In this document: positions 5,978 to 64,000 of the stretch, piece after piece
Position numbering within the stretch: position 1 is the first letter of the stretch
Layout: every line of letters starts with the position of its first letter
Source: a virus
Taxonomy: Duplodnaviria > Heunggongvirae > Uroviricota > Caudoviricetes
IMG/VR virus record: IMGVR_UViG_3300029841_000009
Span: 4,544 to 68,543 of that record
Reading direction: 5' to 3' (one strand)
Length of the DNA: 64,000 bases
Made by a program: the position numbers and the translations under genes
The notes under the pieces: model-generated
Databases searched by the model: none
Seen by the model: only the letters and a program-made list of their open reading frames with translations
What the model was told of the DNA's origin: nothing

Positions 5978-6970
5978 TTACACCACGCGGGCTTCTGTTT
6001 CCAGAAGCGCATCAGTTTCACGGATTGGTACACCACGGAATGAAGTCCACCACTCGCCTTCAGTCTCTTTTACGCTGATAGCCAGAGATGTTTTCTCCAG
6101 AGATTGCAGATCAAGAGCCTGGCCTACAGTGCGGTTCATGTAGAACACCGGGCGGCCCATGCCACGGTTTGGAATGCGATGTAGTGCTTTAACCATCAAC
6201 TTCGCAATATTTGCGGCAGAGGATGGTTCTGAAATATTGCTGACATCGATGTTTGCAATGCGAACAACATAACGCCAGTCACGCAGAGCAAGTCCGTTAT
6301 CCCATTTGTAATGGGTGCGATAGCCTTCGTACTTGCCGCCATTAGCATCTTCCAGTGTCACCTGGCCTTTATCTTCCATCTGGATGCCAGCCTTCTGCCC
6401 TTTCGGGAAGATGCCATGCACGGTGTTTTCGCCCCACACCACTAACCAGATTGAGGTGTTATCTGTACCCGTGCCACCAGCATCAATGATGTTCTGAGCA
6501 TTACCCGCAGACAGGCTGGAATAGCGGGAGGACAGTCCCATAAACTGCTGAGGGTTAACGCTGGAATCACCATAAAACAGCGTCTGCGCCATCTGCTGAT
6601 TCATCGCTTCAATAAATGCGCGGTCTTCAGACAGGCGGAATTCGGCGGTATTGCCGTTCAGATCAGCCAGTGACTTATCGACTTCCGCATAGGTTTCCAG
6701 CATGCCAACGGAATCGGTTACCTGCACTGTGGTTGATTTGCTTGGCTGTACGCCATAGTTCAGCAAACGCCAGGTAGCTGAAGGTAAACCAGAACGAATG
6801 GTGGTTCGGTGTCCGGTAGGAAGGTTCCCTTCGACAAAAGGCATATCCTGAAGGATCGGGTTAGTTTGACCGAGAAGCTCGATAATCTTATCGACTTTCC
6901 CGTTTGGATCGACGCGCTTACCCCAGTCAGCCAGCGTTAGCGCAGTTAAGCCTTTAACAGCCATTGTCAT
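5978..6970 (-). CDS. Major capsid protein
   Basis: 330 aa, between scaffold and tail genes; size and position of T7 gp10-like capsid protein. Confidence 0.65.
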   Translation of the reverse strand: MTMAVKGLTALTLADWGKRVDPNGKVDKIIELLGQTNPILQDMPFVEGNLPTGHRTTIRSGLPSATWRLLNYGVQPSKSTTVQVTDSVGMLETYAEVDKSLADLNGNTAEFRLSEDRAFIEAMNQQMAQTLFYGDSSVNPQQFMGLSSRYSSLSAGNAQNIIDAGGTGTDNTSIWLVVWGENTVHGIFPKGQKAGIQMEDKGQVTLEDANGGKYEGYRTHYKWDNGLALRDWRYVVRIANIDVSNISEPSSAANIAKLMVKALHRIPNRGMGRPVFYMNRTVGQALDLQSLEKTSLAISVKETEGEWWTSFRGVPIRETDALLETEARVV

Positions 6971-6978
6971 TTCCTCTC

Positions 6979-7680
6979 TTATTTGCCATAGAGCACTTCG
7001 GCCGCACTACGCTGGCCTTCATTACCACCGGTGACCATGCCATCTTCAGACATCGCCTTTCCGATTTTCACGAACGTTTTGACCAGATCAGGGTGATTAC
7101 CCAGCCCGGTGGTGTTCAGATATTCTTTGAGTTCAGGTGTCCCGAACTGGTCAAGCGCACGCTGTGCGGCGCTAAGGTTAGAAATCAACTTGTCGCCACC
7201 GATTTCTTTGTCGGCTTTTACATCCGCTGCCCACTGCTCGGTTGTTTTCTGCCAGGCTTCTGCCTGGCGCTGCTGAACACCTGCCAGAATCTTCGGATAA
7301 GCATCAACCAGCTTTTGCGCTTGCTCGTTGGTCAGGTTTAGTTCTCGCGCCACCGGCTCGAATTCCTTCAACGCTTCTGTATCCAGCTCTACGCCTTCGG
7401 CAGCCTGAAACTCGTACTTTTCAGGCGCACCCTCTGGTTTATCGCCGTCCTTTTTTTCATCCTGCTTATCGTTTTCAGGCTTTTTGTCATCAGCAGGTTT
7501 ATCGCCATCAGCAACAGGTTGTGGCTTATCACCTTCCTGTTGTGATGGATCACCAACTGGAGCAGGGTTATCACCTGCAGGCGCTGACGGTTCTGACGCA
7601 GCCGGAGCTGCTCCACCATCGACTGGTTGCTCATTGCAAAGACGGCGATACAGCAAACGCTCAAATAAATTCATGATCAC
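6979..7680 (-). CDS. Scaffolding protein
   Basis: 233 aa, highly acidic with a Pro/Ala/Asp/Lys-rich low-complexity N-terminus and helical C-terminus; lies between portal and capsid. Confidence 0.6.
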   Translation of the reverse strand: MIMNLFERLLYRRLCNEQPVDGGAAPAASEPSAPAGDNPAPVGDPSQQEGDKPQPVADGDKPADDKKPENDKQDEKKDGDKPEGAPEKYEFQAAEGVELDTEALKEFEPVARELNLTNEQAQKLVDAYPKILAGVQQRQAEAWQKTTEQWAADVKADKEIGGDKLISNLSAAQRALDQFGTPELKEYLNTTGLGNHPDLVKTFVKIGKAMSEDGMVTGGNEGQRSAAEVLYGK

Positions 7681-10297: not shown

Positions 10298-10374
10298 GTG
10301 GCATTAGCTCAGTCGGACAGAGCAACCGCCTTCTAAGCGGTTGGTCGCAGGTTCGAATCCTGCATGCCACGCCA
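10298..10374 (+). tRNA. tRNA-Arg (anticodon UCU)
   Basis: Cloverleaf read by hand: acceptor GTGGCAT/ATGCCAC, D-arm GCTC..GAGC, anticodon stem ACCGC/GCGGT with loop CTTCTAA, T-arm GCAGG-TTCGAAT-CCTGC, discriminator G, CCA. Confidence 0.8.
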
Positions 10375-15137: not shown

Positions 15138-15764
15138 TCACTGGTTGCCTCCTTTGCGAAGCTGTTCCGCCCATTCTTCAAGGGATTTCTCCGCATATTC
15201 ACCGGACAGGCCATCAATCGGATGCGCTTCATTAACCAACTCTTCTTTCGCTGACAAAATCATGCGTGTAACGTCGAAAACTTCACGCAAAGACTTATTG
15301 ATAAATCCGTGATTGAACGCAGCAGCAAGACGGCTGGCGGTATAGTTAATCCCCTCGTTGCGTGCTTCCGCACGAATTTCAGCCAGAAAAGCATCGGTAG
15401 CTGGAGTTTCGCTGTGGTGTAGGGCATCATTGATAATCATTGCAGCAACACCAGCCTGCCCTGCATCCGTGACCGACACATGCTCAAGAGTTACGGCCAT
15501 TGCGTGTTTCAGTCCGTCGTTCTCCACCACCAGCGCAGCGAGATTAGTCTCATACTCCGCAATTCGGCACATAGCATCGATATTTGTGTCCTCCAGCCGC
15601 TTAATTTCATCCAGTAGCGCCAGCACAACCTGCGGTGTGACCTTCATACGAAACGCGAGCAATTTTTGCGGCGTTGCCACGACTTTTATTGCTTCTGCTG
15701 CCTCACGCAGTGCCTGGTAATTAATTTCGCTCACTGGTTGCCTCCTGAATACGCTTAAACTCAA
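15138..15764 (-). CDS. Ead/Ea22-like protein (paralog)
   Basis: Contains SEINYQALREAAEA; its 3' ~250 bp is near-identical to 63750-64000. Confidence 0.5.
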   Translation of the reverse strand: MSLSVFRRQPVSEINYQALREAAEAIKVVATPQKLLAFRMKVTPQVVLALLDEIKRLEDTNIDAMCRIAEYETNLAALVVENDGLKHAMAVTLEHVSVTDAGQAGVAAMIINDALHHSETPATDAFLAEIRAEARNEGINYTASRLAAAFNHGFINKSLREVFDVTRMILSAKEELVNEAHPIDGLSGEYAEKSLEEWAEQLRKGGNQ

Positions 15765-17145: not shown

Positions 17146-18213
17146 TCAGGCTTTCAATAGCGATTCTTTCAGATATCGGGCATCAGCCAGGGCATTTGGA
17201 GTAATCTTGCGAACCCATGCATTACGGGTTGGACTCCACTTAAAGGCGCGTGATTTAAGCAGCGAACGAATGTTTGCCTCTGGTTTGCCAGGGAAATAAA
17301 ACAGGATGCGGTTATCCTCTGGATCTATCTCCATAGAAAAGTCGTCGTATTCTTCGCGCTGTGCTCCTGTTACAGACTTGACCGATTCAAGCTCCTTAAT
17401 ACGGCTCTGTAGTCGTTTGATCTCGGCGTTATTGTTGCTCAGTGCGTATGAAGGGAATCCGATGTGCCCACAGAAATCTCCGGCCAGTAACTCTTTGGCT
17501 TCGCTTTCTGTAAACCTGAGATCGATTAATGCAGAAAGCTGCTGTAATTGGTCTTTTTTGTATTTGCGAATGGCCTTATTTGCGGCCTTCATTTTGACGT
17601 GTGACTTCATGCAGCCTTGCAGCTTACGAAGCAACTTAAATAGCGCATCAGGATCATCAGACGAAATTCCATTACGACCAACACCTGCGGCTTTGCTCTC
17701 GTAGTGTGATGCTTTACTTTCGCATTCAACAAACGCTTTTCTTAATAACGCATCAGCTTTAGACAAACGGCGGCGATGGCCTTTCGCGCTATAATGGTCA
17801 ACTAAAATCGGCTGGCCTAACGGGATCACATCCAACAGGTCATGCGCTCGCTTATGCGCTACCGCACCTTCTTTTCTGGCTTTTTCTGCACGAGCAATAT
17901 ATCGGGCAAGACGCGCGTTCTGGCGTTCCTGATAGGTGTTTACGTAATCATCTCCGCGCTGCTGCTGTTCAAGCCATGCTTTGCGCAGATCTTCTGTTAC
18001 GTCCACCAGCTCCGCAGGGATACAACCAGTTTGGGCTTCATAAGAGTAACCATCCTCATAGATACGCCCATCATCTTCAACAAAGAAAAAGGTTTCGTGC
18101 TCATCGCTTTTGACCATACGACCATTAACATGGCGTAATAGGTAGCCAGTATCAGTGCTTAACAGGCTGTTAGGGTTGTTGATCCAGTCAGAAATAATTA
18201 CTTGTTTATTCAT
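17146..18213 (-). CDS. DUF3560-like protein
   Basis: 355 aa; central IPLGQPILVDHYSAKGHRRRLSKAD segment typical of DUF3560. Confidence 0.5.
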   Translation of the reverse strand: MNKQVIISDWINNPNSLLSTDTGYLLRHVNGRMVKSDEHETFFFVEDDGRIYEDGYSYEAQTGCIPAELVDVTEDLRKAWLEQQQRGDDYVNTYQERQNARLARYIARAEKARKEGAVAHKRAHDLLDVIPLGQPILVDHYSAKGHRRRLSKADALLRKAFVECESKASHYESKAAGVGRNGISSDDPDALFKLLRKLQGCMKSHVKMKAANKAIRKYKKDQLQQLSALIDLRFTESEAKELLAGDFCGHIGFPSYALSNNNAEIKRLQSRIKELESVKSVTGAQREEYDDFSMEIDPEDNRILFYFPGKPEANIRSLLKSRAFKWSPTRNAWVRKITPNALADARYLKESLLKA

Positions 18214-18335
18214 CAGATTTCTCCGGTTTAACCAGGGCGGGTATCGCTCGGTTTCGGGTATAACCTTAGGAAATTTTTTCCCACCTGTAAAGCACTTTTT
18301 ATATAAATCTATAATTATATATTTATAGATTTTCG
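18214..18335 (-). promoter_or_regulatory. Conserved promoter-leader cassette, copy 1
   Basis: AT-rich iteron, then -35 TTTACA, 17 bp, -10 TAAGGT, about 50-nt leader with GGAG SD; near-identical copies at 28215-28333 and 58794-58911. Confidence 0.5.
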
Positions 18336-18382: not shown

Positions 18383-18760
18383 TTACTCTCTTCGCTTTTT
18401 CAAATAGTCGACAACATACGCCCTGGCTTTTGCCAGCTTCCGGCGATACTGTCTGAGGCTAAGAGAAAGGGCGTGGGCTTTATCAATATGCGGTGCATTT
18501 ATGTCGAGGCCCCGAATCTCCCACGCCCCGTATTCAATTCGGACAACCAGCGCCGCAGTCTCATCAACTACCGTGAGGGCCGTCACCGCTCCCTCTATAC
18601 TGGTTTCCAGTGAGTCATTTGGTGCGCCGCCCCCTCCGGTAAACTGGCAGCGCGTAACCATCATCATTTCTAACATCGACGCGAAACCGCTACGGGCGTT
18701 GCAGCCATTGCGCACCCACAGCGCCCATAGCTCAAACAAGCTATCCAGATCGCGTCTCAC
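18383..18760 (-). CDS. Candidate late-gene antiterminator (Q-like), low confidence
   Basis: 125 aa; N-terminal MRRDLDSLFELWALW resembles the start of 82-type Q proteins; sits immediately upstream of the promoter cassette. Confidence 0.3.
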   Translation of the reverse strand: MRRDLDSLFELWALWVRNGCNARSGFASMLEMMMVTRCQFTGGGGAPNDSLETSIEGAVTALTVVDETAALVVRIEYGAWEIRGLDINAPHIDKAHALSLSLRQYRRKLAKARAYVVDYLKKRRE

Positions 18761-23349: not shown

Positions 23350-23371
23350 AAAAAAGGCCCCCGAAGGGGCC
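23350..23371 (-). terminator. Rho-independent terminator (minus-strand orientation)
   Basis: GGCCCC-cgaa-GGGGCC hairpin with T5 on the minus strand. Confidence 0.5.
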
Positions 23372-23377
23372 TAATCG

Positions 23378-23500
23378 CTACTTGCTGCTAATGTTTATCG
23401 TCACATTCAGAGCGTTATCAGTAATCTTCCAACCCTCCCCATGTGGCGTAAACAAAGCTCCAGTAACAACGATAAAAATACACATACAGTATTTTTTCAT
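23378..23500 (-). CDS. Small hydrophobic protein (40 aa, MKKYCMCIFIVVTGALFTPHGEGW...)
   Basis: Internal start of the 23378-23560 ORF with AAGGG SD 7 nt upstream; hydrophobic N-terminus; terminator downstream. Confidence 0.3.
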   Translation of the reverse strand: MKKYCMCIFIVVTGALFTPHGEGWKITDNALNVTINISSK

Positions 23501-23731
23501 TGTATGGCCCTTACAGGCCGTTTCACGGCATCCCCACCGACGAAAACAACGCGAGAGCAAGCACGGCTGCTTGTGCTTGCATGTACGGCAACGGAGAATC
23601 CTCCCCTAAAGTCGGTGCCCGGGTGCGAATCGGCGGGAAGGTCCACAGGTATTTTACGATTATTTTAAGATTAGTTATAGGAAAGAAATTAAACGAAAAA
23701 ACTCGTTTATTTTCACAAAATCAGTAACCTA

Positions 23732-24014: not shown

Positions 24015-24095
24015 CGAGCCGTAGCAAAATCTACGGTCGGGATTGGAACCCCGATAATCATCATGGCGCATACCGCGTTAGCGGTTTTTTTATGC
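24015..24095 (+). ncRNA. Candidate c4-like antisense/regulatory RNA in the antirepressor leader
   Basis: Hairpins CCGTAG-caaaat-CTACGG and TCGGG-AUUGGAA-CCCGA, then terminator ACCGC-gtta-GCGGT plus T7; loop UUGGAAC is complementary to GUUCCAA at 24175-24181. Confidence 0.3.
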
Positions 24096-24256
24096 GTAAA
24101 GCACTGCTACACCCAAATTATGGTGGGGCGTGCGGGGGAGTCGTAAGACTCGCCGGATTCCATGGTGACCGGTAGTTCCAACCCTGTACGTCTCACCACC
24201 CAATGATTGGAACCAGACGGTGGTGAGTATCCTTAACCTTTAAGGGAACTATCACC

Positions 24257-24448
24257 ATGACAAACCTACCCCATGACTATTACGTCAACCTCGTAAAGAT
24301 CCTTCTCAAGAAAGCCTCATACGCCGATAAATTCCGCCTGGCTGAAATCATCGAGCGCGAAGCTATGCGCATCGCCAGCAACGATAACGCTGTTTCTGTC
24401 GCAAAAATCTCCCTCGTAACCAAAGTAGTTATGGGAGGTGCAAAATGA
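24257..24448 (+). CDS. Small protein translationally coupled to the antirepressor (Icd-like position)
   Basis: 63-aa ORF; its stop overlaps the ant ATG (ATGA). Confidence 0.4.
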   Translation: MTNLPHDYYVNLVKILLKKASYADKFRLAEIIEREAMRIASNDNAVSVAKISLVTKVVMGGAK

Positions 24449-25626
24449 AAACGCTTCCGACCGTTAACACCCTACAGCCTATCCTGCATAACCAGCTCCC
24501 CGTTATCACTACTGAACTACTGGCGCAATTGTATGGAACCGAGCGCCAACGTCTGACAAACAATTTCAATAGAAACAAGGAACGTTTTATAGAAGGTAAA
24601 CACTTTTTTAGGATAGAAGGTAAAGAGTTACGAGAGTTGAAGAACAAAAACTCTTTAAGAGTTCCTGTGAGAGTAGTTAACGAACCATCTTTAAGAGGGT
24701 TACAAATTCCCCCGAAAGTTCGCTCCCTCATCCTCTGGACAGAACGCGGGGCTGCACGTCACGCCAAAATGCTTGAAACTAACCAAGCGTGGGATGTGTT
24801 CGAACGGCTGGAAGACAGCTACTTCAACCAGAACGCACAAACGGCCGCGACCGTAACCGTCTCACCAAACAATGCTCGTGAGGTTGTCGATACGCTCAAC
24901 GCCAAACCAATGTATTACGTTAAGGTGTGCAACAACGAGCCACTCACAACCTCAGCCGATGTTGCCCAAGCATTCAGCACCACAAACAATTCCATCGTTA
25001 TGGCCATCGATGCGTTACGCATTCCTCGCACGGCTGCGGCGCGTCACTTCTTTAAAGAACAACGACCGCTGGAAGGAAGCGACCGCGAAATAACAATCTA
25101 TCGCATGACAAAAGACGGATTTACCTTGCTCATGGAAAGTATCGACGGTCCAGGCGTGAAGGATATCAAGCTGGCCTACATTGAAGCCTTTAACGCTATC
25201 AGCAGCGTGTTAAAGGCAGAATACGAGCGAATGCTATACAACCGACTGTATCAGGAAACAAAGATTATCCGAACGGCAACAGAACATCATCGGCTATTAA
25301 CGGAACCAAACTACCGCAAGACACTAATCAAAGAGTTTGACAAGGCGACGGAGAAAACTAAAGCGGCACTAAATCTACCAACAATGACTAAAGATGATGT
25401 GATATCAGCCTTACTTCTTGATCTGCTCAGAAACGCCAGAGCACTTATCAGTTTTGACGAAAACCTGAATCCTCAGCTCAAGCTACTACCACCGACAGGC
25501 AAAGTAGTCGACCAAGCAGATCACAACAGCATACTCAGCGTACTGGATGCAAACCTGCCAGCCAGGACACTACAGGAGCTGATAAAAATATCTGCGGATA
25601 AACTGGCCGCAGGTGCAAAACCATAA
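24445..25626 (+). CDS. Antirepressor (ORF6N-like N-domain + Rha-like domain)
   Basis: N-terminal LYGTERQRLTNNFNRNKERFIEGKHFFRIEGKELRELKN; central ITIYRMTKDGFTLLMESIDGPGVKDIKLAYIEAFN (Rha-type). Confidence 0.75.
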   Translation: MKTLPTVNTLQPILHNQLPVITTELLAQLYGTERQRLTNNFNRNKERFIEGKHFFRIEGKELRELKNKNSLRVPVRVVNEPSLRGLQIPPKVRSLILWTERGAARHAKMLETNQAWDVFERLEDSYFNQNAQTAATVTVSPNNAREVVDTLNAKPMYYVKVCNNEPLTTSADVAQAFSTTNNSIVMAIDALRIPRTAAARHFFKEQRPLEGSDREITIYRMTKDGFTLLMESIDGPGVKDIKLAYIEAFNAISSVLKAEYERMLYNRLYQETKIIRTATEHHRLLTEPNYRKTLIKEFDKATEKTKAALNLPTMTKDDVISALLLDLLRNARALISFDENLNPQLKLLPPTGKVVDQADHNSILSVLDANLPARTLQELIKISADKLAAGAKP

Positions 25627-27833: not shown

Positions 27834-28214
27834 TTACTTAACGAGGAATAAAAATGGTTTATCGTTCGGCGGTGTACTCGGGGCTGGCTCGCTTTTGCTC
27901 ATACGATCAGTGTACCAGGCCAGCTCCTTGTCAAAGTAAGCCTGATTAAAATAGGCCATGAATGTGGTTTCAAATCCATAACGACCGCTAATACGCAGCA
28001 TCTGATTGCCGTTCTCTGTTTCCAGATATACCTGGGCACGTTCCTGATTCTCCTTCAGCCAAGTTAAAGCCTCGTCGCACGAGGACACACGATACTCATC
28101 ATCGTAGCCGTCATCGATGCGGCTTGAAGAAGAACGGCAAATCACGCCAACAGAACCAGCCAGGATAGTTTGAATTTTAAGGAAAGCGTTTTTGCGGATT
28201 TTAATCATGCTCAT
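27834..28214 (-). CDS. Hypothetical protein driven by cassette copy 2
   Basis: 126-aa ORF directly downstream of the conserved promoter-leader cassette. Confidence 0.45.
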   Translation of the reverse strand: MSMIKIRKNAFLKIQTILAGSVGVICRSSSSRIDDGYDDEYRVSSCDEALTWLKENQERAQVYLETENGNQMLRISGRYGFETTFMAYFNQAYFDKELAWYTDRMSKSEPAPSTPPNDKPFLFLVK

Positions 28215-28333
28215 CGGGTTATCTCCGGTTTAACCAGGGCGGGTATCGCTCGGTTTCGGGTATAACCATAGGAAATTTTTTCCCACCTGTAAAGCACTTT
28301 TATATAAATCTATAATTATATAATTCTATGAGC
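28215..28333 (-). promoter_or_regulatory. Conserved promoter-leader cassette, copy 2
   Basis: Near-identical to 58794-58911; -35 TTTACA, 17 bp, -10 TATGGT, leader, GGAG SD, ATG. Confidence 0.5.
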
Positions 28334-39340: not shown

Positions 39341-39548
39341 TATTGCGTCTCCACGGAGGAAAATTGTTTACTGATATTGGCATAACCGGAGCATCAGGAA
39401 CTTTAAGAATAATTCCCGCAGAAAAAAGCACCGTAAAGCGGTGCTCAGTATTAGCATCAATAAGAAGATAAGACAGGTACTCATTACCATACAACTTTAA
39501 AGCGATACTATCCCATGAGTCCCCTTGAACCGTTCTATAATCATCCAA
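39330..39548 (-). CDS. Tail protein X-like (LysM-like small protein)
   Basis: 72 aa; MDDYRTVQGDSWDSIALKLYG pattern of tail protein X. Confidence 0.55.
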   Translation of the reverse strand: MDDYRTVQGDSWDSIALKLYGNEYLSYLLIDANTEHRFTVLFSAGIILKVPDAPVMPISVNNFPPWRRNSVT

Positions 39549-57581: not shown

Positions 57582-57606
57582 AAAAGCCCCGCGACACCGC
57601 GAGGCT
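57582..57606 (-). terminator. Rho-independent terminator after the small membrane-peptide pair
   Basis: GCCTCGCG-gtgt-CGCGGGGC hairpin with T5 on the minus strand. Confidence 0.5.
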
Positions 57607-58252: not shown

Positions 58253-58326
58253 CCCATGTTCTCCTTTGTCTGGATGTAAAAAAGCCCCGGCAATTGCCGA
58301 GGCTCGTTGTTCGTTATCGTTACGGT

Positions 58327-58527: not shown

Positions 58528-58793
58528 TCATCATCTCCTGCCGCACATACAACCTCACAAAAAAAATCAGCAGAATGTTTCTCCTTGAACGAATGACGCT
58601 CAAAACCGCACTCAATATCAGGCGCAAAAACATCCACCACATACGGTCTTTCAGAATGTTTGTTTTCCCAACGATAAACCGTAGTGACGTTGAAATGTTT
58701 TAACGCTTCACGGAACTCAACGCTGCCAGTCAGGTTTTTTGAGGTCAGGTATTGCAGGAGGTTTTTTACTACTTCACGGTCTTGTACTTTCAT
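58524..58793 (-). CDS. Hypothetical protein driven by cassette copy 3
   Basis: 89-aa ORF immediately downstream of the conserved promoter-leader cassette. Confidence 0.45.
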   Translation of the reverse strand: MKVQDREVVKNLLQYLTSKNLTGSVEFREALKHFNVTTVYRWENKHSERPYVVDVFAPDIECGFERHSFKEKHSADFFCEVVCAAGDDE

Positions 58794-58911
58794 CGGGTTA
58801 TCTCCGGTTTAACCAGGGCGGGTATCGCTCGGTTTCGGGTATAACCATAGGAAATTTTTTCCCACCTGTAAAGCACTTTTATATAAATCTATAATTATAT
58901 AATTCTATACC
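58794..58911 (-). promoter_or_regulatory. Conserved promoter-leader cassette, copy 3
   Basis: -35 TTTACA (58872-58867), 17 bp, -10 TATGGT (58849-58844), leader with GGAG SD; AT-rich iteron 58877-58911. Confidence 0.5.
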
Positions 58912-59800: not shown

Positions 59801-59876
59801 TGGTGGCCCCTACCGGATTTGAACCGATGACCGTGCGATTATGAGTCGCCTGCTCTAACCACTGAGCTAAGGGGCC
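59801..59876 (-). tRNA. tRNA with CAU anticodon (tRNA-Ile2-like, or Met)
   Basis: Minus-strand read GGCCCCTTAGCTCAGTGGTTAGAGCAGGCGACTCATAATCGC...GGTTCAAATCC...GGGGCCACCA; close to my recollection of E. coli ileX in acceptor, D and anticodon arms. Confidence 0.8.
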
Positions 59877-60012: not shown

Positions 60013-60047
60013 AACTATATATTTATATAATTATAGAAATATATATT
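60013..60047. repeat. AT-rich iteron downstream of the spanin genes
   Basis: AACTATATATTTATATAATTATAGAAATATATATT, same family as the parA-flanking iterons. Confidence 0.45.
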
Positions 60048-60255
60048 ACTTGGGGCAGTTGATTTCCCATGCCCTGTTATGAGCCAGAATATCTTTCTTT
60101 GTCTGGCGGTCCATAACATCGATATCGTGATCAGTCAGGTAGATGGGCTTTACCCAATCACAGGCGGTATCAACCACCACCGGGACGCTTCCACGACTCC
60201 CGCAGCTCGCGATCAACATCGTCATCAGCCATATGGTTAACACTCTGCTGTACAT
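60046..60255 (-). CDS. o-spanin (outer-membrane lipoprotein, Rz1-like), overlapped arrangement
   Basis: 69 aa with signal peptide and lipobox IASC; start lies inside the i-spanin gene in another frame. Confidence 0.55.
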   Translation of the reverse strand: MYSRVLTIWLMTMLIASCGSRGSVPVVVDTACDWVKPIYLTDHDIDVMDRQTKKDILAHNRAWEINCPK

Positions 60256-60448
60256 TGCCCACCTCTTTTGTCACTTCTATACGCCGCTCCGCAGTGGCTT
60301 TTACGGCGGCTGCATTCTCATTAATGCGCTGCTTTTCAGCTTCATCTTCGGCCTTTTCTCGCCCCTTCATACGACCAAAACCAAACGCACCGAATGCAAC
60401 CAATATAACGGTGCCGATAAATGACAAAACGGCTTTCAAACCAGTCAT
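60170..60448 (-). CDS. i-spanin (Rz-like) candidate
   Basis: 92 aa; N-terminal TM (AVLSFIGTVILVAFGAFGFG) then charged helical region; follows the endolysin. Confidence 0.5.
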   Translation of the reverse strand: MTGLKAVLSFIGTVILVAFGAFGFGRMKGREKAEDEAEKQRINENAAAVKATAERRIEVTKEVGNVQQSVNHMADDDVDRELRESWKRPGGG

Positions 60449-60987
60449 ACCACCACTCGCTCTTTCATCCAGCCATAGACAAACGACTCATTTGCTTCGC
60501 GTTTCTCCGCCAGGTCCAGATAACGGTCGCCCTGCGTACAGTTCAGGGCCGTCAGCATTACCCGTTCGCCGTCTTTTCCCCGATTCCCAAGATAAGCACG
60601 TAATGCCGCAATGGTGCGCGGGCCGATTCGCCCATCCACATCCATATCTGGATACAACTTCCCGCCACGGTTGAAAACATTCAGCCAACGTTGAAGCATC
60701 TTCGTAGCCACAGTCGGCCCCATGTTGACGCCCGTATCGCACATCTCAGCCGCAATATCAGGGGAAAATTGCGCCACCTGGTCAAAACGAGGCCCATACC
60801 AATAATCACCTTCAAGAATCATCAGAGCCTGTTCTCGCGTCAGATCTCGCATATCGCCACGGTATCCGTGAGCACGGGCAGTATTCTGAGTAATGCCCCA
60901 CTTTGTTGGGCCTCCCTTGTCGTCAGGGTGATCCACATAGCCGCCCTCTTTTCCAAGAATGCTGTTAAAAATCTCATCTTTGGTCAT
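60445..60987 (-). CDS. Endolysin (GH108-type lysozyme with peptidoglycan-binding domain)
   Basis: N-terminal ILGKEGGYVDHPDDKGGPTKWGIT motif characteristic of GH108 endolysins. Confidence 0.75.
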   Translation of the reverse strand: MTKDEIFNSILGKEGGYVDHPDDKGGPTKWGITQNTARAHGYRGDMRDLTREQALMILEGDYWYGPRFDQVAQFSPDIAAEMCDTGVNMGPTVATKMLQRWLNVFNRGGKLYPDMDVDGRIGPRTIAALRAYLGNRGKDGERVMLTALNCTQGDRYLDLAEKREANESFVYGWMKERVVV

Positions 60988-61270
60988 GATTAAACCCTAA
61001 TGCGTCAACTATCCGCGCCAGATTGCCCCTGAAATACAGAACAACGATGCAGATAATCAGATTTCCAATAACCACCAGCCAGTGGGATTCTTGATAAAGA
61101 CCGAACACATAACGGAAGGGAACATTGGCGTATACAATGACGTAGATATAAGCCAGAAAGGAAACAAATGGACGATGCCTGGAGTCTTTCCGTCGATAAA
61201 GCATCAGCGCCATTACTATTACTGTGCAAAGCACCGCATTAATCAGTGCTGACGGGTCACTGCTTACCAT
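60974..61270 (-). CDS. Membrane protein (antiholin/holin candidate; start at MVSSDPS)
   Basis: About 98 aa with 2-3 predicted TM helices, between the holin candidate and endolysin. Confidence 0.4.
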   Translation of the reverse strand: MVSSDPSALINAVLCTVIVMALMLYRRKDSRHRPFVSFLAYIYVIVYANVPFRYVFGLYQESHWLVVIGNLIICIVVLYFRGNLARIVDALGFNHDQR

Positions 61271-61652
61271 TTGAACCCCCTCCACGTAAGCGGGAAAGCA
61301 TTCCAAAGATGCTACCGAGATCCTGGCTGTTTACGAACGTGAGGATTTTAATGGTCAATGCAGCCACAATAACCGCACCAAGCGCATCCAGAGGACGATC
61401 GTTGTAGCTGGTCCATTTGGCAAGAAATGAGCCAACTAACGGCGCTCCAATCACTCCAACAATGAACGATGTAAAGAAATAGCCAATCAGCTTGAGACGG
61501 CTAATATTCACCGCTGTAGCAACATAGAAAACAGCGCCAGCAAATGCCCCGAATACAACGCCGTAATCAATACCAGTTGCAATACCAAAAACGCTGGCAC
61601 CCATCAGGCCACCAGCAGCAACGGCCGTACCGGAAATTGGTTCTGCTGACAT
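61257..61652 (-). CDS. Holin candidate (start at MSAEPISG)
   Basis: About 131 aa, multiple Gly/Ala-rich TM helices and charged C-terminus; first gene of the lysis cassette with GAGGA SD. Confidence 0.45.
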   Translation of the reverse strand: MSAEPISGTAVAAGGLMGASVFGIATGIDYGVVFGAFAGAVFYVATAVNISRLKLIGYFFTSFIVGVIGAPLVGSFLAKWTSYNDRPLDALGAVIVAALTIKILTFVNSQDLGSIFGMLSRLRGGGSNGKQ

Positions 61653-61665
61653 TGAAATCCTCGTT

Positions 61666-61694
61666 AAAAAAAAGCCCCGCCGAAAAGGCAGGGC
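61666..61694 (-). terminator. Rho-independent terminator immediately upstream of the lysis cassette (tR'-like)
   Basis: GCCCTGCC-ttttc-GGCGGGGC hairpin followed by T8 on the minus strand, ending about 12 nt before the holin SD. Confidence 0.55.
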
Positions 61695-61840
61695 TTCATA
61701 AAGCAACAAATTACGCGGTAATCGCTTAACGCAGTTTTACTACGTTAAATGAAACACTACACCCAGTTACCACCTAAAACAAGGTTTCTTCATAAAAAAA
61801 CCTTCAAAATGTGGTTGATCGATCAATAAAAAAACAATAC

Positions 61841-62158
61841 TCACAGTAGTGCAGAAAAGAATAGCGGCTTAACTGCTTTCCTCACCTCACTAGCGTACAT
61901 CCCCGCAGCTATCTCAGTTGTGAACAAACGCCCTCCAACTAGCCATGCAACAGGTGCAGATGCCAGGGATGCCAGTGCAATTTCATCTGTAGCAAGCTCT
62001 CTTTCAAGATATTCACGAAATCCGGGGTTAATAGTTACCGTATCCAACATTCTCTGGCGCGCTTCCTTACGTTCACGAATATGGGCAATCAATTGCTCTT
62101 TGGTAAAAGTAGCCATATCACTTTCCTTTCCCATGAAGCATAGCCGCGCGGCAGGCAT
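61841..62158 (-). CDS. Hypothetical protein (probable start at MATFTKEQ, 62116)
   Basis: Contains the LASLASAPVAWL motif shared with the 62118 gene. Confidence 0.35.
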   Translation of the reverse strand: MPAARLCFMGKESDMATFTKEQLIAHIRERKEARQRMLDTVTINPGFREYLERELATDEIALASLASAPVAWLVGGRLFTTEIAAGMYASEVRKAVKPLFFSALL

Positions 62159-63737: not shown

Positions 63738-64000
63738 AACTGAACTCCTTTGCGAATCTGTTCCGCCCATTCTTCAAGGGATTTCTCCGCATATTCACCG
63801 GACAGGCCATCAATCGGGTACGGTTCATTAGCCAACTCTTCTTTCGCTGACAGAATCATGCGCGTAACGTCGAAAACTTCACGCAAAGACTTATTGATAA
63901 ATCCGTGATTGAACGCAGCAGCAAGACGGCTGGCGGTATAGTTAATCCCCTCGTTGCGTGCTTCCGCACGAATTTCAGCCAGAAAAGCATCGGTAGCTGG
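63734..64000 (-). CDS. Ead/Ea22-like protein, C-terminal part (gene runs off the right edge)
   Basis: Near-identical at DNA level to the 3' end of 15138-15764; stop TGA at 63734-63736. Confidence 0.5.
   Translation of the reverse strand, partial: PATDAFLAEIRAEARNEGINYTASRLAAAFNHGFINKSLREVFDVTRMILSAKEELANEPYPIDGLSGEYAEKSLEEWAEQIRKGVQL

Follow-up and report, generated by a model that had tools for sequence, protein, structure and literature searches.

A probable Q-type antitermination switch ahead of the lysis genes of a 48-kb phage-plasmid

The lambdoid Q-dependent cassette, as described for phage 21, comprises the Q gene, the promoter pR' with its Q-binding and sigma-dependent pause elements, the terminator tR', and the lysis and structural genes (bioRxiv 10.1101/651190). 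AlpA, an antiterminator of self-lysis genes in Pseudomonas aeruginosa, has no sequence homology to the Q proteins and a different fold; its intrinsic terminator directly precedes the first lysis gene and starts 54 nt after the transcription start, its binding element sits between the −35 and −10 hexamers, and it acts also on a second, distant locus (PMC7969949). BrrG, the Q21-like antiterminator of the Bartonella gene transfer agent, is encoded apart from its target locus, where it acts on a promoter, a −10-like element, and a terminator in the leader (bioRxiv 10.1101/2024.11.20.624540). Finally, the gene PA0613, located just upstream of the holin gene PA0614 in the R/F-pyocin cluster, is listed just among “adjacent regulatory genes” (PMC11871291), and our search of the literature on PA0613 and on the phage-plasmid family described below found no functional study of either.

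The window analyzed here (64,000 nt) contains, at 15149–63744, one 48.6-kb circular phage-plasmid in linearized form. It is of the RepA/ParA kind, has a myovirus tail, and is not an integrated lambdoid phage; it belongs to a family of about 48 kb that is common in Escherichia coli, Salmonella, and Klebsiella and has one member in the reference strain ATCC 25922. No complete E. coli genome was found to contain the junction between the phage-plasmid and phiV10-like DNA. We propose, with a probability of roughly 0.55, that the lysis cassette comes first in the late transcription unit of this element (roughly 48 kb), with a Q-type antitermination switch as its gate.

The cassette consists of five genes, followed by a tRNA gene transcribed in the same direction:

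61257–61652, minus strand: holin, 131 aa, first gene of the cassette (PF16931, E = 1.7e-37)
61659–61662, minus strand: Shine–Dalgarno (SD) sequence GAGG of the holin gene, with the ATG at 61652
60974–61270, minus strand: second membrane protein of a 3TM holin family, a holin or antiholin partner (PF05449, E = 8.9e-18)
60445–60987, minus strand: endolysin, glycoside hydrolase 108 (GH108) with PG_binding_3 (PF05838, E = 4e-26; PF09374, E = 1.7e-26)
60170–60448, minus strand: i-spanin, 92 aa, N-terminal transmembrane segment (phrog_1026, Rz-like spanin, E = 5.9e-32)
60046–60255, minus strand: o-spanin, 69 aa, lipobox LIASC (phrog_1275, Rz-like spanin, E = 2.9e-33; from the open reading frame list)
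59801–59876, minus strand: tRNA, anticodon CAT, between the lysis cassette and an MT-A70 methylase gene

Pfam and PHROG matches thus bear out the gene content given in the original prediction (holin candidate, second membrane protein, GH108 endolysin, and overlapped i- and o-spanins), and the set comprises what defines a phage lysis cassette: besides the holin there are a muralytic enzyme and a two-component spanin, in which the gene of the o-spanin lipoprotein starts within the i-spanin gene and ends beyond it. As in the lambdoid Q cassette, the lysis genes head a long co-oriented late array: from 61652 to about 31830, the minus strand carries the lysis cassette, the tRNA, methylases, terminase, and head and tail genes, with lysis preceding morphogenesis.

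The region upstream of the holin gene contains the following elements:

61666–61697, minus strand: intrinsic terminator, stem AAGCCCTGCC / GGCGGGGCTT, loop TTTTC, then T8 (terminator scan and RNA folding)
61700–61845, minus strand: the whole conserved cis-regulatory module, ~150 nt, starting where the variable upstream gene ends with its stop codon (homology across relatives)
61726–61748, minus strand: leader hairpin SL2, TTAACGTAG-TAAAA-CTGCGTTAA, invariant in all three lineages compared (folding)
61754–61782, minus strand: best sigma-70-like promoter candidate, −35 TTGTTT (61782–61777), 17-nt spacer, −10 TAGTGT (61759–61754) (position weight matrix, PWM)
61781–61814, minus strand: motif CCAC-N4-TGAAGG (61814–61801), overlapping hairpin SL1 (AAGGTTT..AAACCTT, 61804–61781) (conservation)

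The terminator ranked first in the terminator scan. Its stem (61697–61671) has 11 pairs, 7 of them G-C, and a 5-nt loop, with eight T at 61673–61666; the predicted fold of −20.2 kcal/mol (z = −5.2) was equaled in none of 200 shuffles. The prediction of a strong intrinsic terminator directly before the holin gene is thus well founded, and its placement “about 12 nt” before the SD holds when counted from the end of the stem (~11 nt), whereas the T-run ends 3 nt from the GAGG and 13 nt from the ATG. Because the T-run ends so close to the holin ATG, a promoter cannot fit after the terminator; the best PWM match within these 13 nt scored 3.2 bits, with its −10 hexamer on the SD, and a promoter at this position was rejected. 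The claims that no promoter intervenes and that lysis-gene expression has to pass the terminator are both upheld by this lack of room.

The hairpin is kept in all of the about 60 related plasmids, and in the Salmonella-type relatives it shows pair-preserving changes together with one compensatory change; the terminator presumably works in vivo. As in the lambdoid Q cassette, an intrinsic terminator separates the lysis genes from a conserved promoter-proximal element. More broadly, a terminator just before the first lysis gene was seen in five lineages of the phage-plasmid family and in lambdoid prophages with known Q genes. In a more distant relative (L039), three terminators precede a lysis cassette of a third kind, and the one nearest to the genes ends 24 nt before the ATG. 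Lambdoid prophages with the same holin family often have a terminator 41–48 nt before the holin ATG, in contrast to the 13 nt observed here, and the Q genes upstream of that holin family belong to PF06530, PF06576, PF03589, and PF06323.

Upstream of the terminator, homology to all relatives begins at about 61840–61843 regardless of the gene that precedes it: the intergenic region 61655–61840 is kept in about 60 plasmids though the upstream gene varies. Downstream, the lysis genes vary as well. The 115-nt core of the module is 84% conserved in Salmonella plasmids with different lysis genes, and a 57-nt core is identical in the Salmonella-type and L034-type relatives; these have a different spacer, terminator sequence, and set of lysis genes, yet keep a terminator in position. 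In total, three non-homologous lysis cassettes were found in the same slot behind the module. When the module was aligned to the equivalent gaps of the distant relatives L039, L041, and L043, only terminators and the short motifs CCAC-N4-TGAAG and GTGGT[AC]A were recovered, with CCAC-N4-TGAAG recurring in L039 and L043.

The promoter candidate TTGTTT-17-TAGTGT is a modest PWM match (7.4 bits, 99.95th percentile), and a simple consensus scan found no sigma-70 match in 61700–61840, where the original prediction had put a late promoter. In this respect the locus differs from the lambdoid cassette, as the candidate is weak. Its hexamers are nevertheless invariant across the three lineages, between which three spacer positions vary. 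The spacer contains GGTGGTAAC (61774–61766), a candidate Q-binding element that would be placed as is the AlpA element (PMC7969949); the upstream CCAC-N4-TGAAGG is another candidate. Downstream of the candidate −10, the 5' arm of SL2 includes the −10-like hexamers TAACGT (61747–61742) and TAGTAA, which never vary and may be sigma-dependent pause elements. Transcription from the candidate promoter would start near 61746, about 50 nt ahead of the terminator, a distance close to the 54 nt of the AlpA system (PMC7969949).

SL1 behaves differently from SL2. Among 23 variants, the flanks of CCAC-N4-TGAAGG/SL1 are fixed and N4 and the loop are variable; in the Salmonella type the stem shows covariation (TTT/AAA to AAA/TTT), and wobble-compatible changes, as in RNA, also occur. 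Since SL1 lies upstream of the proposed start and covaries in this RNA-type manner, its transcription must begin further upstream, with SL1 serving either as a terminator there or as part of an extended leader. A promoter at TATTGT (61839–61834), immediately ahead of SL1, was considered and rejected because this hexamer varies among the 23 variants. SL1 thus resembles transcribed RNA, and the loading site of an antiterminator could accordingly be elsewhere.

These hairpins invite the question of whether the leader RNA itself confers antitermination, like put of HK022, with an outer stem ACCAC/GUGGU, SL1, and SL2 acting in cis on the transcribing polymerase. We regard this as very improbable. 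Two conserved stem-loops do lie directly upstream of the terminator, SL1 covaries, and long CCAC..GTGG dyads occur at the same place in L039 and L043; however, a terminator would serve no purpose behind a cis element that is always active, the invariant SL2 lacks covariation support, no Rfam family matches, and a conserved Q homologue (see below) would be left without a role.

The same structures could also be read with no dedicated antiterminator at all: the hairpin would end an upstream operon or a small RNA gene of about 80–160 nt, and the lysis genes would be fed by leaky read-through, giving low holin levels, or by an activator-dependent promoter in the module. The RNA-compatible changes of the module hairpins, a MarR-like regulator encoded in the same operon, and the SL1 dyad, centered ~45 nt upstream of the proposed start as a possible activator site, are in keeping with this explanation. 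Module plus terminator also matched the full Rfam model of GcvB (RF00022) at E = 1e-4, but the 33.7 bits fall short of the gathering score of 42 and the match is absent in the Salmonella and L034 variants; it probably reflects generic features, and homology to GcvB was rejected. Efficient termination would be expected of a −20 kcal/mol hairpin followed by eight T, several other strong terminators of the same orientation within the late array argue for processive read-through, and a Q homologue is conserved in every relative, all of which make this explanation unlikely.

The factor that most likely lets RNA polymerase read through the terminator is encoded far away in the window:

18383–18760, minus strand: 125-aa remote homologue of Q21/Q82-type antiterminators, phrog_5285, annotated “hypothetical protein” (profile searches, hhalign, Foldseek)

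The original prediction had singled out this open reading frame as Q-like, and sensitive comparisons agree: the family profile matches Q21 (6JNX/6P18) at E = 3e-5, and an hhalign comparison with the PF06530 alignment gives a full-length match with 86.8% probability and E = 4e-6. The link became clear only after an exhaustive profile search; a shallow alignment of 24 sequences gave an hhalign E of 0.023, and its profile yielded just a weak Tc3 helix-turn-helix match among PDB sequences. In contrast to lambdoid Q proteins, the 125-aa protein is too diverged to match a Pfam Q family alone, with no Pfam match even at E values up to 10 and the gathering threshold of PF06530 (Phage_antitermQ, Q82 type) not reached. 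Among the 111 family members, 10 match PF06530 weakly (best E = 1e-4) and 20 match phrog_79, “anti-termination protein Q-like.” Q21 structures were the top Foldseek match for two models (pLDDT 77.5 and 87.7), at nonsignificant E values of 0.25–0.9, and AlpA ranked 27th with a probability of 0.14. On the strength of these profile comparisons, we consider the protein a real but remote Q21/Q82-type homologue, sharing with that group a sigma region 4-like helix-turn-helix.

The best NCBIfam match of the protein, over its full length, is the PA0613 family (NF051483; 21.3 bits, E = 2.5e-4), which is also matched by 58 of the 111 family members (best E = 6.7e-9). Because all scores are far below the curated cut-off of 100 bits, PA0613 represents a sister family rather than the same family; the PA0613 gene, too, sits next to a gene for lysis. 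The 125-aa protein is among the best-conserved early proteins, being 93% identical in the Salmonella relative, compared with 66–77% for the repressor and early genes. In every case, distant relatives included, its gene closes the early block and is followed by co-oriented terminators and late genes.

The original prediction placed this only Q-like candidate 43 kb from the lysis genes. This distance is an artefact, because the window is a circular phage-plasmid opened as a linear stretch: in the about 60 circular relatives, the gene lies 4.3–5 kb upstream of the holin gene on the same strand, with 8–10 accessory genes between. The layout still departs from that of the lambdoid cassette, where Q is adjacent to its target promoter, although the protein would act in trans whatever the distance. 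BrrG provides a precedent for action between loci, but it belongs to an alphaproteobacterial gene transfer agent, was found by structural similarity, and targets a capsid operon, not a lysis cassette (bioRxiv 10.1101/2024.11.20.624540).

Further promoters and terminators in the late direction bear on where the protein loads and how far it acts:

58282–58305, minus strand: strong co-oriented intrinsic terminator, 10 pairs (7 G-C) (terminator scan)
57585–57606, minus strand: strong co-oriented intrinsic terminator, 9 pairs (7 G-C), ahead of the ParB, methylase, and terminase genes
39426–39446, minus strand: co-oriented intrinsic terminator inside the tail gene array
18201–18327, minus strand: triplicated promoter-plus-leader, copy 1, TTTACA-17-TAAGGT, directly downstream of the Q-like gene (alternative loading site)
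28211–28329 and 58781–58908: triplicated promoter-plus-leader, copies 2 and 3

The presence of several strong co-oriented terminators within the late array fits processive antitermination. The triplicated element, in turn, offers another place for the Q-like protein to load (promoter at 18291–18263, copies at 28293 and 58872), in which case the module would have a different role and, in the circle, polymerase from copy 1 would cross ~4.5 kb of accessory genes and then the terminator into the lysis genes. Copy 1 occupies the canonical position immediately after the Q gene, its PWM scores are higher (9.4–10.6 bits versus 7.4 for the module candidate), the three copies are near-identical in E. 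coli as well as in the Salmonella relative, which also has three, copy 3 is followed by two strong terminators within 1.3 kb, and GGTGG follows the −35 hexamer in both this promoter and the module element. However, between E. coli and Salmonella the triplicated element is about 85% conserved by eye, less than the lysis-proximal core with its 57 identical nt; no clear −10-like pause element follows the triplicated element; and loading there leaves unexplained why the 115-nt module stays with the terminator while both flanks swap. We therefore judge loading at the triplicated promoter improbable, and infer that the 125-aa protein is the read-through factor and that it loads at the module. The location of SL1 upstream of the proposed start and the stronger triplicated promoter at the canonical position were both counted against module loading.

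In the switch that we favor, transcription would most likely start at the weak promoter TTGTTT-17-TAGTGT within the module 61845–61700, and RNA polymerase would then meet the terminator at 61697–61666. In the absence of the factor, polymerase would release an RNA of ~80 nt, comparable to the 6S RNA of phage lambda, which is about 194 nt long. Once the early operon makes the 125-aa factor (18760–18383), the C-terminal half of which resembles sigma region 4, the factor would bind the module and join RNA polymerase, rendering it resistant to termination. The modified polymerase would enter the holin, endolysin, and spanin genes and go on past the terminators at 58305, 57606, and 39446 into the packaging, head, and tail genes. 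In weighing this switch, we counted against it the lack of a Pfam match, the nonsignificant Foldseek E values, the weak promoter, and the ~5 kb between the Q gene and its target. Our overall verdict is that lysis control here is most likely an ordinary textbook Q-type late switch with a slightly unusual layout, in which the Q family is divergent and the Q gene does not adjoin its target.

The general picture of lysis timing by temperate phages is unchanged by these results, which add a further case of a Q-type regulator and its target being split by accessory genes. They identify the likely switch for the lysis and virion genes of these common phage-plasmids of about 48 kb and give a probable function to one of their conserved “hypothetical proteins.” More tentatively, and with less confidence than we place in the switch itself, phrog_5285 may represent a distinct, previously unrecognized branch of the Q21/Q82 antiterminators that would act in trans on a remote target, a portable ~150-nt module of promoter, leader, and terminator that can be coupled to any lysis cassette. 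By extension, the lysis and structural operon of the Pseudomonas R/F-pyocins may have its missing antiterminator in the sister family PA0613, which indicates a testable role for PA0613 in pyocin production.

We assign a probability of roughly 0.55 to a Q-type switch in which a 125-aa protein encoded at 18383-18760 (minus strand), loading at a conserved module close to the lysis genes (approximately 61700-61845, minus strand), governs the terminator in front of those genes (61666-61697). The protein would load at this lysis-proximal module and carry the polymerase past the terminator. The complete lysis cassette, from 61652 to 60046, and the adjoining tRNA gene comprise the following features:

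Holin, minus strand, first gene of the cassette (PF16931, E = 1.7e-37)
Second membrane protein, minus strand, 3TM holin family (PF05449, E = 8.9e-18)
Endolysin, minus strand, GH108 plus PG_binding_3 domain
i-spanin and overlapping o-spanin, minus strand, both PHROG Rz-like spanins (E ~1e-32)
59801-59876, minus strand, tRNA with anticodon CAT, between the cassette and the methylase gene (tRNA-Met by ARAGORN; the same gene in relatives is tRNA-Ile in RefSeq)

The best intrinsic terminator of the region lies directly upstream of the cassette and consists of an 11-pair stem (7 G-C), a 5-nt loop, and eight T at 61673-61666; its fold (-20.2 kcal/mol, z = -5.2) was equalled by none of 200 shuffles. 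The T-run ends 3 nt before the Shine–Dalgarno sequence (SD) GAGG and 13 nt before the holin ATG, and no promoter fits between terminator and holin, the top position weight matrix (PWM) match (3.2 bits) overlapping the SD. The original prediction of a strong terminator before the lysis genes without an intervening promoter is thus confirmed, because the terminator is both strong and adjacent and leaves no space for a promoter after it.

Whichever gene lies upstream, homology to all relatives starts at its stop codon (61840-61843), so 61655-61840 moves with the lysis module. Salmonella plasmids and a third lineage (L034) retain the upstream 115 nt, with an identical 57-nt core, and the next spacer is different; their terminator differs in sequence through pair-preserving changes and a single compensatory one, and the lysis genes are non-homologous (phrog_20 holin, phrog_7 endolysin, and phrog_214 spanin). 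The more distant L039 has three terminators ahead of another lysis cassette, the last ending 24 nt before the ATG. Module and terminator are kept while the lysis genes differ; the conserved unit is therefore the module plus terminator, not the lysis genes. Across the family, the slot bounded by the accessory genes on one side and the MT-A70 methylase on the other contains three non-homologous cassettes (60046-61652 in the window, 6231-7604 in the relative L027, and 12873-13996 in L039), each preceded by an intrinsic terminator. An Rfam match to GcvB over module and terminator (61666-61822, minus strand; 33.7 bits, gathering score 42) is in our view spurious, being sub-threshold and not reproduced in the diverged Salmonella or L034 variants.

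A consensus scan of the module returned no sigma-70 promoter. The top PWM site, TTGTTT-17-TAGTGT (7.4 bits, 99.95th percentile on this strand), has both hexamers fixed across lineages, with three spacer positions varying, and the terminator stem would start ~50 nt past the predicted transcription start. This candidate promoter is followed by the -10-like hexamers TAACGT and TAGTAA within an invariant hairpin, and two motifs, CCAC-N4-TGAAGG and GTGGT[AC]A (the latter in the promoter spacer), recur at the same place in distant relatives and are candidate protein-binding sites. Upstream of the candidate promoter, the stem of hairpin SL1 (61781-61804) covaries between lineages, and the rare changes that 23 variants show in SL1, in a second hairpin, SL2 (61726-61748), and in the terminator are without exception wobble-compatible on this strand. 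Transcription of SL1 is therefore probable, with the hairpin acting either as a weak terminator of the upstream genes or within a longer leader. RNA-based, put-like antitermination at these hairpins seems to us quite improbable, and it is unlikely, if less so, that the module is a small RNA and that lysis depends on leaky termination or an activator-dependent promoter.

The Q-type switch draws on the identity of the 125-aa protein. Alone, it has no match in Pfam; its PHROG match is phrog_5285 (function unknown), and it aligns weakly, over its full length and far under the cut-off, with the NCBIfam PA0613 family (E = 2.5e-4). An exhaustive profile search retrieved 130 representative relatives of 110-150 aa, and a profile built from 111 of them matched the Q21 antiterminator (6JNX, 6P18; E = 3e-5) and, at full length, the PF06530 (Q82-type) alignment (86.8% probability, E = 4e-6). 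The PA0613 family was touched by 58 of the 111 members (all sub-threshold), phrog_79 "anti-termination protein Q-like" by 20, PF06530 by 10, and the ECF sigma family Sigma70_ECF by 6. For two AlphaFold models (pLDDT 77.5 and 87.7), Q21 structures ranked first, followed by sigma region 4, at nonsignificant Foldseek E values (0.25-0.9). The protein is 93% identical in a Salmonella relative, compared with 66-77% for the repressor and early genes, and ~60% compared with ~30% in two distant relatives. Its gene lies at the end of the early block, behind that of the Ref nuclease, in all relatives that we inspected, even in distant ones whose virion modules differ, and co-oriented intrinsic terminators, together with late genes, always lie downstream. 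Conservation and gene position agree with the homology evidence, and we conclude that the protein belongs to the Q21/Q82 superfamily as a remote member that has gone unannotated. The Pseudomonas PA0613 gene adjoins the R-pyocin holin PA0614; none of the papers that we found gives a tested function for PA0613.

The switch would work like the canonical Q cassette (bioRxiv 10.1101/651190), although promoter, pause element, and binding site are here candidates only, and the Q-like gene is not adjacent to its target, whereas adjacency is a defining feature of that cassette. Action on non-adjacent loci is already known for AlpA, in whose system a terminator likewise directly precedes the lysis genes (PMC7969949), and for the Q21-like BrrG (bioRxiv 10.1101/2024.11.20.624540). 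The same factor might instead load at a stronger promoter that immediately follows its gene and exists as three near-identical copies; we regard this, too, as unlikely. The copies are promoter-plus-leader elements of ~125 nt (TTTACA-17-TATGGT):

18201-18327, minus strand, first copy, immediately downstream of the Q-like gene
28211-28329, minus strand, second copy
58781-58908, minus strand, third copy

Each copy terminates at the ATG of the next gene, and the Salmonella relative L029 has three at equivalent places (17605, 26735, and 35008). An AT-rich palindrome, TATAATTATA, inside longer TATAGAATTATATAATTATA-like runs, occurs at 18310, 22073, 22838, 28311, 58890, and 60026, at module boundaries, among them the two flanks of parA and the point where the lysis cassette ends; the Salmonella relative has nine similar copies, and the palindrome may act as an operator or centromere-like site.

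Processive antitermination is favoured by further strong intrinsic terminators (58305, 57606, and 39446) in the co-oriented array from holin to tail genes and by prophage context. Other Enterobacteriaceae carry PF16931 holins in 23 chromosomal prophage loci; of the 18 scored, about half have a strong hairpin 41-48 nt ahead of the holin ATG, and known Q genes from four Pfam families are located upstream in these prophages. Placing a terminator directly ahead of the holin is thus normal lambdoid design. The PF16931 holin genes of lambdoid prophages L004-L015, L024, and L026 share a conserved 5' UTR, TTTCCCCTC..GAGAGG..GAGGGGG, ~45 nt before the ATG (locus ~6955-7000), in which CCCCTC could pair with the SD; the window holin is without it. 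In the Klebsiella loci L016-L020 (~6500-6920), the holin lacks a preceding terminator, and the gene immediately before it matches the antitermination N peptide family (PF25694, E = 7.7e-8).

The original prediction placed the Q-like candidate 43 kb from the lysis genes, a distance that stems from the linear opening of a circle. Positions 16419-63499 are collinear with an entire circular 47.9-kb E. coli plasmid and with the 49-kb Yersinia phage vB_YpM_39; these relatives are phage-plasmids encoding RepA, ParA, an XRE-type repressor, a myovirus tail, and a lambda-like head. Where relatives are circular, 4.3-5 kb and 8-10 accessory genes separate the 125-aa gene from the holin, which lies downstream of it on the same strand; linearisation therefore explains the 43 kb. 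Three RNAs scored above their Rfam gathering scores:

24018-24203, plus strand, C4 antisense RNA (84 bits)
23350-23646, minus strand, isrK (70 bits)
24445-25626, plus strand, ryfA (142 bits)

C4 and isrK lie just upstream of an antirepressor-like ORF, so the region resembles a P1/P7 immI-like immunity region.

From position 1 to ~15.4 kb, the window matches late genes of phiV10/TL-2011b-like podophages; this part contains a second tRNA, Arg(TCT), at 10298-10374. Two copies of a 256-nt repeat (15149-15404 and 63745-64000; 97.3% identity) are spaced 48,596 bp apart, one plasmid length, and the window therefore holds one complete phage-plasmid, linearised and joined to phiV10-like DNA, as either a cointegrate or an assembly join. 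The repeats flanking the 48.6-kb unit sit in Ea22-like genes. The junction was absent from every complete E. coli genome of the collection, and the arrangement of the repeat-flanked unit suggests a cointegrate arising through homologous recombination, or else a join made during assembly. If the join is real, the early operon of the phage-plasmid now transcribes into the podophage terminase genes.
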